Source: Actinomycetes bacterium
GTDB lineage: Bacteria > Actinomycetota > Actinomycetes > S36-B12 > UBA5976
Assembly: GCA_046086025.1 (NCBI GenBank)
Contig: JBJSWT010000046.1
Location: 1 to 36,858 of the forward strand
Direction: 5' to 3'
Length of the DNA stretch: 36,858 bases
How positions within the stretch are numbered: the first letter of the stretch is position 1; each line of letters begins with the position of its first letter. The notes under the pieces are model-generated. The model had not been told where the DNA came from. It searched no databases and saw only the letters and a program-made list of their open reading frames with translations. The translations under genes were made by a program, and so were the position numbers. This document shows positions 23,369 to 26,213 of this stretch, one piece after another.

Positions 23369-23914
23369 TTAGTCAACGACTTCTGTGATTCTTTTAATTC
23401 TTGCGTCTGTGAATAAGTCGTATTCGTCTGTACTTCTGGTAGAAAATTCAGTCACGATAGCACCTTCAGGTCCTGCTTGAAACCAGTGTTTGGTGTCTGG
23501 ATAAATAGTGTGTTGTTCGCCTGGGTGTAATACTTTTTCATGCCAAACTGTGTAAATATTTTTTTCAATTTCATGTGGATTAGCTTTTGGATTAGGAGTT
23601 TTTTCTCCTTCAACATATAAATAGACGATTCCTTTACGGCAGCGAAAAGTTTCTTCTTTACCAGGATTTCCACTTACCGATACGTGTCTATGTTCAGGAC
23701 AAACTTGAAATGGGGTCATCACGATTTCTTTAGCACAAACTCTTTCGGTATTTACATAAACTAGTAATTGAATACCTATTTTTTCTAAATTGGATAAACC
23801 AAAGTCAGAAACTTCAATTTTATTTTTTTCTTCAGCAGTTAAAACTATTCCAGCACTTTTAAATTCATTAAAAGCCCATTCTTGTTTTTCTTGAATAACT
23901 TTCTTTTCAAGCAT
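23369..23914 (-). CDS. D-lyxose/D-mannose ketol-isomerase family (YdaE-like cupin)
   Basis: DFGL, CAKE, CPEHRH, GKEETFR, HWFQAG and EFST motifs. Confidence 0.88.
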
Positions 23915-24165
23915 TAAATAGTTTCACCTTCATTACCTACATAAGCAACTAAGTCTCCAGTATTTAGTACAGTTCCTGGTTCAGCCACGATTTTTAAAAG
24001 TATTCCTTCTTCAGGAGATTCAACATCTACTTGGGCTTTATCTGTTTCTACTACCAATAAAGGTTCAGCAATACTTACTTTGTCGCCAATTTGTTTATGC
24101 CACAAAATAATTTCCATTTCGTCTGCTGTTTGTCCTAATGCTGGTAGGCGAATTTCATTTGCCAT
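23914..24165 (-). CDS. Stand-alone lipoyl-domain protein (83 aa)
   Basis: IRLPALGQT...[13 protein letters not shown]. It has a clean stop overlapping the next ATG and no E3-binding or acyltransferase domain. Confidence 0.9.
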
Positions 24166-25197
24166 TTACTTTAACTCCATCTTGTGTAGTTGTCTTATTT
24201 TTTCTTTAATTCTTTCAATACTTGGGACTACTGTTTGTTCCAATACTGGAGTAACTGGTAGAGGTACATCATAGGCAGCAATTCTTTGTACTGGTGCTTT
24301 TAGTTTGGAGAAACAGTTTTGTGAAATTAAGGCAGCAACTTCAGCTCCCCAGCCACCTGTAAAAGTATCCTCGTGGGCTATTAAAGCTTTACCTGTTTTA
24401 TTTACTGACTCATAAATAGTTTTGGTGTCTAGGGGAAGTAAAGAAACTGGATCTATAACTTCACATTCGATTCCTTCAATTTTAAGTTCTTCTGCAGCTG
24501 CAAGACATCTGTATAAAGTTAAATGAGTTGAAATTATTGTCAGAGAATTTCCATCTCTTTTTTTCAGTGCTTTTCCAATGGGAAATAAATACTCTTCTTC
24601 AGGAACTTCAGCAGTTAAATCCATACCACCTGCAGATTCTCTACCTTTACTTCCATAAAGCAACTTATGTTCAAAGACAATTACTGGATCATCATCTCTG
24701 ATGGCACTTTTCATGATGCCTTTTGCAACATATGCATCAGAAGGGCAAACTACTTTTAAACCAGGAACATGTATGAAATAACTTTCTGGAGATTGACCAT
24801 GTTGGGCACCTCTATTAGCAGTGCCAACAGGGCAGCGAAGGGTCAAAGGTACTTTTAATTTTCCACCCGACATATATCTCATCTTTGCTGCTTGGTTAAC
24901 AATTTCATCCATACATTCAAAAATAAAATCTGAATATTGTAAATCTGGAATAGGTCTCATTCCCATTAATGCAGCACCCACAGATGTTCCAATAATTGCT
25001 TTTTCACTAATTGGGGTATCAATAATTCTTTCGTGGCCAAATTTTTCAGGTAATCCTAAATAAACTCCAAAAGCACCACCAAAACCACCAGGAATTCCAA
25101 TATCTTCACCAATGAGAAATACATTTTCATCTCTTTGCATTTCTTCTGCAATTGCTTCTCTTATTGCTTCACCAATTCCAATTCTTCGTGTGGTCAT
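24166..25197 (-). CDS. ThDP-dependent dehydrogenase E1 beta subunit (AcoB/PdhB-like)
   Basis: GEDI, DTPISE, NQAAK, AQH.QS, PGLKVV and FEHK motifs. Confidence 0.92.
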   Translation of the reverse strand: MTTRRIGIGEAIREAIAEEMQRDENVFLIGEDIGIPGGFGGAFGVYLGLPEKFGHERIIDTPISEKAIIGTSVGAALMGMRPIPDLQYSDFIFECMDEIVNQAAKMRYMSGGKLKVPLTLRCPVGTANRGAQHGQSPESYFIHVPGLKVVCPSDAYVAKGIMKSAIRDDDPVIVFEHKLLYGSKGRESAGGMDLTAEVPEEEYLFPIGKALKKRDGNSLTIISTHLTLYRCLAAAEELKIEGIECEVIDPVSLLPLDTKTIYESVNKTGKALIAHEDTFTGGWGAEVAALISQNCFSKLKAPVQRIAAYDVPLPVTPVLEQTVVPSIERIKEKIRQLHKMELK

Positions 25198-26213
25198 TAT
25201 TTTTGAACCTCAGTTGGTGAACTCATGTCTGAGGCATACGCATCAATAAAGGCATCTTCAGCTTTTGGAAATGGTGATTGTTGCGCAAATACCACTGCAT
25301 CATCAATTTCTTCTTGAATATTCTTAACAATTAATGCAAAAGCTTCATTATCAATTAAGTTATTTTCGATAAGGGAATCTTTCATCCGATCTATGGGATC
25401 AAGTGTTCTCCAGTAGTCTTCCTCTTCTTTAGTTCTATATTTTTTAGCGTCACCTCTGCTGTGACCTGCAAAGCGATATGTTTTAGCTTCAATCAAGATC
25501 GGTCCTGAACCATTTGCAATGGCATCTCTTGCTTCTTTCACCGCTAAATAAACTTCAACCACATTCATGCCATCAACAATTTTTGAAGTCATGCCATAAC
25601 TACCTACTCTGTCAGCCACATTTTCCACAAGAGTGGTTTTGTTATAAGCAGTTGAGGCACCGTAAATATTGTTTTCGCACACATAAATAATTGGTAATTT
25701 TTGAATTGCTGCAAGATTTAATCCCTCATGAAACGCACCTTCATTTGTGGCACCTTCACCAAAAAAACATGCAGCAACTTGTTTAGTGTTTTTCATTTTG
25801 AAAGCTAAACCAACTCCAGTAACAATGCTTACTCCACCTGCCACAATTGCAATTGCTGGAAGCATTCCAACTTCAGGATCACCCAGATGCATGGATCCAC
25901 CTTTTCCTTTACAGCATCCAGTTTCTTTGCCATAAAGTTCTGCCATTGCAGAACGCATCGAAACACCTTTTGCGATGGCGTGTCCATGTGGTCGATGAGT
26001 TGAAGTAATCCAATCTGTTTTATTTAATGCTGTGCAAACACCAACAGCAACTGCTTCTTGGCCTTGGTATTGATGAATTGTTCCAGGAAGTTCACCTTTT
26101 AAAAATAATTGATAAACTTTATCTTCAAATTTTCTAAGTCTTATAACGTCTGTGAAAAGAGAAATTAATAATTCTTTGTCTAAATTATTTAAATTAATGG
26201 ATCTTTCAACCAT
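25197..26213 (-). CDS. ThDP-dependent dehydrogenase E1 alpha subunit (AcoA/PdhA-like)
   Basis: GQEA, STHRPHGH, GKGGSMH, GEG...ENN ThDP motif and TYRFAGHS. Confidence 0.92.
   Translation of the reverse strand: MVERSINLNNLDKELLISLFTDVIRLRKFEDKVYQLFLKGELPGTIHQYQGQEAVAVGVCTALNKTDWITSTHRPHGHAIAKGVSMRSAMAELYGKETGCCKGKGGSMHLGDPEVGMLPAIAIVAGGVSIVTGVGLAFKMKNTKQVAACFFGEGATNEGAFHEGLNLAAIQKLPIIYVCENNIYGASTAYNKTTLVENVADRVGSYGMTSKIVDGMNVVEVYLAVKEARDAIANGSGPILIEAKTYRFAGHSRGDAKKYRTKEEEDYWRTLDPIDRMKDSLIENNLIDNEAFALIVKNIQEEIDDAVVFAQQSPFPKAEDAFIDAYASDMSSPTEVQK

Follow-up and report, generated by a model that had tools for sequence, protein, structure and literature searches.

The question raised by this locus is how an E1 enzyme of the 2-oxoacid dehydrogenase type, encoded next to a lone lipoyl domain, passes on its acyl group. 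The locus lies on contig JBJSWT010000046.1 of the Actinomycetes bacterium assembly GCA_046086025.1 (GTDB S36-B12; UBA5976); the whole analysed stretch of 36,858 nucleotides is referred to below as the window. The textbook 2-oxoacid dehydrogenase complex is organised around an E2 core. In the operon studied here, the genes for E1 alpha and E1 beta are followed by one for an 83-residue protein with a single lipoyl domain, and the operon encodes no peripheral subunit-binding domain (PSBD, PF02817), acyltransferase core or dihydrolipoamide dehydrogenase (E3). On balance, this small protein is probably the cognate carrier of the operon E1, discharged and re-oxidised by the housekeeping E2 and E3 of the cell. 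The six genes of the cassette, in their order on the minus strand, are as follows (FBA, fructose-bisphosphate aldolase; ThDP, thiamine diphosphate).

27111..28130, minus strand: pfkB-family sugar kinase, 339 residues, first gene of the cassette (PF00294, E 4.1e-50)
26213..27109, minus strand: class II FBA-family ketose-phosphate aldolase, 298 residues (PF01116, E 1.3e-65)
25197..26213, minus strand: E1 alpha, ThDP-binding subunit, 338 residues (PF00676, E 1.8e-81)
24166..25197, minus strand: E1 beta, 343 residues (PF02779 and PF02780)
23914..24165, minus strand: stand-alone lipoyl domain protein, 83 residues (PF00364, E 3.2e-17)
23369..23914, minus strand: D-lyxose/D-mannose isomerase family cupin, 181 residues (PDB 7nzo, E 1.7e-66; 2y0o, E 7e-64)

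These genes lead a run of eleven co-oriented genes and overlap or abut at their stops and starts; all six, from kinase to isomerase, are intact and translationally coupled.

The lipoyl protein and its E1 partner

The stop codon of the E1 beta gene (TAA) is directly followed by the ATG of the lipoyl gene, whose own TAA shares bases with the ATG of the isomerase gene (TAATG), so that there is no room for an acyltransferase remnant. Among the 35 window ORFs scanned with Pfam, neither 2-oxoacid_dh nor E3_binding was present. An earlier note, made from the DNA letters alone, had described the 83-residue frame as a single lipoyl domain with an ETDKA motif that ends on the start of an isomerase gene and leaves no acyltransferase remnant, and this description was borne out in each respect. 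The PF00364 match spans positions 1–72 of the 73 in the profile and residues 3–75 of the protein; the motif lies within the sequence VETDKAQV; and the next gene encodes a cupin of the D-lyxose/D-mannose isomerase family, for which Pfam gives a weak Lyx_isomer match and the PDB matches are clear.

Lipoyl domains carry the modified lysine in a DKA motif and biotin carriers in an MKM motif. The best NCBIfam matches of the 83-residue protein are the lipoyl ends of E2 proteins (E 5e-18 to 1e-13), with biotin carriers at 1e-6 to 7e-4. The protein does not classify as GcvH, since Pfam reported only PF00364 and its context is E1 alpha/beta, without gcvT or gcvP; nor does it classify as an E2, as it contains neither the catalytic domain PF00198 nor the PSBD. 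A protein search confined to sequences of 45–146 residues returned 72 relatives, 52 of which are 83–94 residues long and 65–99% identical at a query coverage of at least 98%.

Both E1 subunits resemble pyruvate dehydrogenase (PDH). The closest solved relative of E1 alpha is human PDH E1 alpha (E 2e-55), and its score against TIGR03182 (352.6 bits) falls below the cut-off of 393.85; E1 beta passes the PDH E1 beta subfamily model NF006667 (332.5 bits, cut-off 321). His133 of E1 beta is invariant in the E1 beta alignment and aligns with a histidine of PDB 1ik6; by its motif, we take it to be the equivalent of H128-beta. This assignment and that of the histidine of a GHS motif in the E1 alpha translation are presumed from motif, against the histidine roles set out in PMC2663715.

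Reality and maintenance of the short form

Near-identical DNA occurs in eight studies of freshwater and related metagenomes, in 20 DNA runs altogether; the runs listed with near-identical sequence included no RNA run. In three of the four runs examined, contigs bridge the junction between the lipoyl and isomerase genes (23280–24378, 23305–24207 and 23293–24021), and these contigs come from three other studies. The run contigs compared have no listed insertion or deletion in the interval 23000–26300. An assembly error or frameshift was thus ruled out by the junction sequence, the bridging contigs and the 20 matching runs.

Compared with three relatives, the lipoyl gene of the window has dN/dS ratios of 0.025, 0.057 and 0.056; three other pairs give 0.013, 0.051 and 0.174, and dS is saturated for the remaining pairs with the window. 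The sequence ETDKAQV is found in all 12 members of the lipoyl-only clade described below. As judged from these sequence comparisons, the short lipoyl gene is functional and under purifying selection. The low ratios (0.013–0.17) indicate that the deletion of the E2 core is old and maintained, and they rule out, together with the depth of the clade, a recent deletion or a pseudogene.

Repeated loss of the E2 core among homologous cassettes

A first scan with the lipoyl protein, against one genome per species, gave 42 loci, half of which (21) carry the same cassette, with E1 beta identities of 75–98%. The frame that begins at the lipoyl start is short (77–94 residues) in 10 of these 21 loci and 388–422 residues long in eight; one frame of 141 residues shows no further homology, and two leave the contig. 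The two long forms that were scanned, of the eight, both contain lipoyl, E3_binding and 2-oxoacid_dh domains, as in a normal E2. A second scan with an E1 beta alignment gave 444 relatives, and the analysis used the 80 best; counts out of 80 below refer to these loci. They belong to Actinomycetota, Dormibacterota, Chloroflexota, Latescibacterota and others, and the actinobacterial carriers include Nanopelagicales-labelled metagenome-assembled genomes (MAGs), Microbacteriaceae, the cultured genus Jiangella, Thermoleophilia, Gaiellaceae and Acidimicrobiia.

The gene after E1 beta encodes a full E2 in 43 of the 80 loci (337–449 residues, plus two longer frames), a lipoyl domain with PSBD in 21 and a lipoyl domain only in 11. 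The other five are unclear: two leave the contig, one lacks the region and two are broken-frame assemblies. Four loci have odd ORF lengths, with homologous genes broken over several frames (L079, L090, L122 and L132; L079 and L090 are counted as unclear). The 21 intermediate forms (156–185 residues) show no similarity to the E2 core at any position in the locus; their arrangement of lipoyl domain, linker and PSBD was seen in 19 sequences and confirmed by Pfam in all four of those scanned. Since a full-length E2 occupies the same position in other cassettes, the 83-residue carrier is a truncated E2 rather than a GcvH-like or new carrier.

The E1 beta tree (86 rows, IQ-TREE quick mode, SH-aLRT support only) is not rooted by the data, and the relatives in it are not independent. 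The lipoyl-only forms, including that of the window, form one clade of 12 (SH-aLRT 98), sister to the full-E2 forms of Jiangella and Microbacteriaceae. The lipoyl-PSBD forms require eight changes by parsimony, and well-supported branches force at least six; they are placed in a large Dormibacterota clade, in two Chloroflexota groups and as three singles beside full-E2 sisters. L079 is probably mislabelled as full in the tree, which raises the total of 10 changes by about one. Because the truncated forms are nested within full-E2 clades, repeated loss is favoured over gain, and the E2 core appears to have been lost at least six times among these cassettes.

The two outcomes that the earlier note had set against each other are both touched by these results. 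Its expectation that homologous clusters would also end after the lipoyl domain holds for 10 of the 21 cassette loci and for one clade of 12; the full-length E2 that it had named as contrary evidence does occur at this position, in the more distant cassettes, but the recent deletion or assembly error to which it would have pointed is excluded, the loss being old and under purifying selection.

Identity between the E1 beta proteins is 66–98% across the 80 loci, 75–83% between Actinomycetota and Dormibacterota, and 93–98% among the nearest relatives. For the kinase of these cassettes, identity outside the closest relatives is only 35–46%, and for the lipoyl domain it is 37–73%. Extreme constraint on E1 beta or recent horizontal spread may lie behind this contrast.

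Several loci deserve separate mention. Contigs of L066, L067, L071 and L098, labelled Anaerolinea, Bifidobacteriaceae, Rubricoccaceae and Saccharimonadales, nest tightly in actinobacterial or dormibacterial clades, which suggests mis-binned contigs or very recent transfer. In an Actinomycetota MAG (L132:10021-13095, plus strand), the E2 frame continues for 1025 residues into a bifunctional aldolase/short-chain dehydrogenase (SDR), either as a natural fusion of E2, aldolase and SDR or through a stop lost in assembly. Apparent split E2s in L149 and L150 were set aside as possible frameshift artefacts, as their lipoyl-PSBD and core frames overlap.

Housekeeping E2, E3 and lipoylation genes

The assembly comprises 1.31 Mb in 201 contigs and is 93% complete. 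Two PF00198 matches were found, both on contigs other than the window. One is a SucB_Actino E2 split over two contigs (C123 and C31; 578.9 and 221.9 bits; cut-off 423); the break falls within the repeated lipoyl domains (C123:6787-7359 and C31:3410-4915), and this is the only complete E2 of the genome. The other is an OdhA/KGD-like frame of 1216 residues, which contains an E2 domain and the only other E1_dh match in the genome. An Lpd is encoded directly upstream of SucB (487.5 bits, cut-off 408.8). AceE is represented by end fragments only, on contigs of 911 and 1087 bases; the SucB and AceE breaks look like assembly breaks rather than gene loss. LipB (305.6 bits, cut-off 155) and LipA (331.6 bits, cut-off 310) are both encoded on contig C159, and BirA is present in the genome. 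A hidden core-only E2, of the kind described in the next section, was not found in this 93% complete genome.

At least one other E2 core is present in all 32 genomes with a truncated form. Published reports bear on the sharing of E2 components. One on acI genomes (PMC5301498) notes no annotated PDH E2 and proposes that the E2 of 2-oxoglutarate dehydrogenase (ODH) serves both complexes, and actinobacterial OdhA/KGD is described as using the lipoyl-lysine supplied in trans by E2p (PMC10415282).

A split E2 on an Arthrobacter plasmid

A tblastn search of annotated plasmids with E1 beta gave as its best match (58.5%) a plasmid of Arthrobacter sp. FW306-07-I. A class II FBA gene is followed there by a fused E1 alpha/beta (694 residues) and an 85-residue 'biotin/lipoyl-containing protein', and then by an FGGY kinase, a SorC-type regulator, a sugar ATP-binding cassette (ABC) transporter, a second FGGY kinase and an SDR. 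The far end of the linear record carries a gene for a GlpD-like dehydrogenase and, on the opposite strand, lpdA. The gene beside lpdA specifies a 228-residue 'dihydrolipoamide acetyltransferase family protein', which consists of a 2-oxoacid_dh domain alone (E 2.1e-68). If the record is circular, the GlpD-like gene, lpdA and the 228-residue core would adjoin the aldolase gene. The separate lipoyl and core genes on this plasmid suggest that in this family the two parts can work from separate polypeptides, and that transfer to coenzyme A (CoA) belongs to the Arthrobacter system. The next annotated relatives are aco-type clusters of Clostridioides difficile, with 50% E1 beta identity, a SorC regulator, a full E2 and lpdA.

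A further sugar cluster is present on the Arthrobacter plasmid (L147, NZ_CP084551.1 16601-25154). It encodes a dihydroxyacetone-kinase family protein, an RpiB-type isomerase, a TIM-family protein, DUF2291 and a ribose-type ABC transporter; we take it to resemble tetritol catabolic clusters.

Proposed mechanism and alternatives

E1 enzymes accept only their cognate lipoyl domain, and E2 cores and E3 are far less selective; owing to this asymmetry, a dedicated core would be redundant and a dedicated lipoyl domain would not. Recognition of the lipoyl domain by E1 reportedly determines channelling, to go by the title of a 2001 paper by Jones et al. In the proposed mechanism, the PSBD and acyltransferase core of a dedicated E2 would have been deleted in an ancestor of this freshwater actinobacterial clade, with the lipoyl domain kept. 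The 83-residue carrier would be lipoylated by LipB and LipA and reductively acylated by the operon E1 alpha/beta; the acyl group would then pass to CoA on the SucB/DlaT core or on the E2-like domain of the OdhA-type protein, and the single Lpd would re-oxidise the carrier. The acyl group would most simply be acetyl, or another small acyl group accepted by the housekeeping core. The earlier note had proposed that E2 and E3 are borrowed from elsewhere: an E2 core, an E3, LipB and LipA are indeed encoded in the genome, and that the carrier makes use of them is the conjectural part of the proposal.

Several points weigh against this mechanism. With the PSBD gone, there is no tether of E1 or carrier to a core, and transfer would depend on diffusion, which could be slow. 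The core-only E2 of Arthrobacter has no counterpart in the genome of the window. That all 32 genomes with a truncated form have another E2 core is to be expected of most aerobes and discriminates little. An unusual acyl group, glycolyl or glyceroyl, may not be accepted by a housekeeping core, and in a genome of 201 contigs the inventory of E2 and E3 could miss a gene.

A special case of the borrowed-core mechanism is that the operon encodes an extra PDH E1, co-expressed with a sugar pathway, whose carrier is acetylated from pyruvate and whose own core became redundant. This explanation is possible but doubtful. It agrees with the PDH-type score of E1 beta and the closeness of E1 alpha to PDH-type alpha subunits, and an acetylated carrier would suit the resident acetyltransferase core; the full E2s of the cassettes also match PDH acetyltransferase models best, at 231–239 bits, far below the cut-off of 445. 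Against it, the genome already contains AceE fragments, an aldolase homologue accompanies E1 in nearly all loci (see below), the nearest annotated relative outside the family is the C. difficile aco-type cluster, and the Arthrobacter system, which has a core and lpdA of its own on a catabolic plasmid, suggests a pathway-specific step.

An improbable alternative is hydrolysis, which the earlier note had also raised: the acyl-dihydrolipoyl thioester would be hydrolysed to the free acid, spontaneously or by an unlinked thioesterase, and Lpd would re-oxidise the carrier. On this view, E1 and carrier would act as a ThDP/lipoyl-dependent oxidase of a carbonyl compound derived from sugar, without CoA transfer. 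Loss of the core on at least six occasions, with the lipoyl domain and often the PSBD (which binds E1 and E3) retained, would be expected if CoA transfer were non-essential. However, the 43 cassettes with a full E2 and the separate Arthrobacter core beside lpdA imply that CoA transfer belonged to the system ancestrally; no hydrolase co-occurs in the cassette, and the absence of a thioesterase there leaves the earlier suggestion unsupported. Discarding the thioester would, moreover, bring no gain over an ordinary aldehyde dehydrogenase (ALDH).

That the short frame is a decaying remnant, with the E1 genes on their way out of a streamlined genome, is very improbable: the cassette is patchy in the genus (an aldolase of its score class, 217–223 bits, in 4 of 19 genomes including that of the window) and the genomes of the lineage are reduced (1.3 Mb), but the low dN/dS, the invariant lipoyl-lysine motif, the six intact and coupled genes, the high identity of E1 beta among the nearest relatives and the spread of the short form over a clade with saturated synonymous divergence all argue against decay.

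Substrate and sugar-pathway context

The operon combines a D-lyxose/D-mannose isomerase, a pfkB-type kinase and a class II FBA-like aldolase, the content of lmuKAI. The kinase scores under every NCBIfam equivalog cut-off, and its homologues (35–97% identity) sit in the same cassette in other genomes. The aldolase, likewise, falls under the cut-offs of FBA, tagatose-bisphosphate aldolase and all other NCBIfam equivalog models; no other protein of the genome matches PF01116. Across the genus, matches to this profile score either about 260–270 or about 217–223 bits, and 10 of the 18 other genomes (G001–G018) lack one altogether, so class II FBA is patchy in the genus.

Of the 80 loci, 75 have a detected aldolase homologue, which mostly lies immediately upstream of E1 alpha, and the same order is found in Arthrobacter, whose kinases come from another family than the pfkB kinase of the cassette. 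This conserved order favours a step tied to the aldolase over a spare PDH. Other sugar genes are less constant. A GH38 alpha-mannosidase neighbours the cassette in 8 of 80 loci, and a long-type lyxose isomerase is present in 8 of 80. An Aldolase_II protein occurs in 38 loci, fused to an SDR in 26 (NF006196, 940 bits, above the cut-off); the best matches of the 12 stand-alone forms are ribulose-1-phosphate and fuculose-phosphate aldolases, below the cut-off.

Two sources of evidence on the substrate were set aside: neighbouring genes, as contexts differ between loci, and best matches, as E1 alpha and beta score similarly against PDH, branched-chain ketoacid dehydrogenase (BCKDH) and generic 2-oxoacid dehydrogenases. 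Pyruvate is a tentative candidate, and the hydroxy-aldehyde product of the aldolase (glycolaldehyde or D-glyceraldehyde) is put forward with equal caution. A ketose or ketose phosphate, cleaved by analogy with QncN/L (see below), seems rather unlikely, as does some other compound.

It is also conceivable, at about the level of confidence given to pyruvate, that aldolase, E1 and lipoyl protein form an undescribed module, analogous to aldolase-dehydrogenase pairs such as DmpFG but based on ThDP and lipoyl, within a pathway. In such a module, the aldolase would split a ketose phosphate derived from mannose, lyxose or a polyol, and E1 would at once load the reactive hydroxy-aldehyde onto the free lipoyl carrier; alternatively, E1 itself would cleave the ketose phosphate, as QncN/L. 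If this is true, the chemistry of the module would make a dedicated E2 core dispensable, hence its repeated shedding.

Comparison with known systems

The system resembles PDH and acetoin dehydrogenase (AcoABCL) complexes in its heterotetramer-type E1 (PF00676, PF02779/PF02780), the DKA lysine motif of its lipoyl domain and the conserved histidine of the beta subunit, and distant members of its E1 family have a normal E2. Unlike these complexes, its operon lacks a PSBD, an acyltransferase core and an E3, and E1 lies between a ketose-phosphate aldolase and a sugar isomerase; without an AcoC-type E2 core or an AcoL-type E3, the operon does not qualify as an AcoABCL system.

Three systems with unusual lipoyl domains offer partial parallels. 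In alphaproteobacterial PdhB, lipoyl domain and E1 beta are fused, and a full E2 is still present. The window shares with PdhB (NF008854) a lipoyl domain dedicated to E1 beta, its lipoyl protein corresponding to positions 1–83 and its E1 beta to positions 141–461 of the profile; it differs in having separate ORFs, E1 beta followed by lipoyl, with no E2 after them. GcvH is similar as a small free lipoylated carrier (putatively so in the window) that shuttles between separate enzymes, but the window protein comes from a different branch of the fold family, matches E2 lipoyl domains and descends from an E2. The hybrid PDH-ODH of the OdhA/KGD type (PMC10415282) has a likeness in the OdhA-like protein of the genome itself. 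The two arrangements are mirror images, OdhA having a core without a lipoyl domain and the window a lipoyl domain without a core; in this genome, moreover, the presumed partner core is encoded apart from E1.

Two further systems bear on the sugar context. The lmuKAIZYX locus of E. coli O157 is described (PMC10128022) as a lyxose/mannose utilisation locus with an ABC transporter and without E1 or lipoyl genes. The cassette has the same triad of pfkB-type kinase, class II FBA-like aldolase and D-lyxose/D-mannose isomerase, a likeness at the level of gene families, and differs in adding E1 and lipoyl genes. In Streptomyces secondary metabolism, QncN/QncL/QncM (and SclQ1-4) move a C2 unit from a ketose phosphate onto a lipoyl group, according to two reports (PMC6335953, PMC7570522), which indicates that a lipoyl-dependent enzyme of such a layout can work on sugars. 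By description only, these are similar to the window in combining a two-part ThDP enzyme with a lipoyl/acyltransferase protein; they differ in that, in the same sources, the ThDP parts are described as transketolase-like and the acyl group passes to an acyl carrier protein (PMC6335953, PMC7570522).

A literature search, with subscription-only papers outside its coverage, found no description of an E1 alpha/beta pair with a core-less lipoyl protein, nor of such a cassette with E1. The E2 core appears to have been dropped repeatedly across a widespread family, leaving a lipoyl domain with PSBD, a lipoyl domain alone or a core in a separate protein, with the lipoyl domain and the extremely conserved E1 beta always kept; the family is a natural series for asking which parts of E2 are needed. 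It also suggests that the sharing of lipoyl carriers between complexes can run both ways, which complements OdhA, and it points to an uncharacterised ThDP/lipoyl step in the sugar catabolism of freshwater bacteria that include some of the most abundant. Both a full and a split E2 are available in culture, in Jiangella and Arthrobacter sp. FW306-07-I, respectively.

Genomic neighbourhood

After a gap of 50 bases, the run on the minus strand continues with five more genes, for a purine nucleoside phosphorylase, a PGM-type mutase, DeoC, an ALDH and a half-length ALDH. In its opposite half, the window has genes for cytidine deaminase and adenosine deaminase, for two further nucleoside phosphorylases and for a Bmp-type ABC transporter. 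The cassette is thus embedded in a nucleoside-catabolism island (7108-22520 and 28290-31317) that holds genes for cytidine deaminase, two PNP/UDP-family phosphorylases, thymidine phosphorylase, an amidohydrolase, the Bmp-type transporter, adenosine deaminase, the PGM-type mutase, DeoC, ALDH, guaB and a xanthine/uracil permease. This neighbourhood is common to the closest relatives only (L009 and L010).

The half-length ALDH paralogue (17614-18459, minus strand, 281 residues) matches only the N-terminal half of the Aldedh profile (positions 6–232 of 461), and its start overlaps the stop of the full-length ALDH (18459-19895). As it is kept in the two nearest relatives, with 96% and 78% identity, it seems to be a half-enzyme that is being maintained, not a new truncation.

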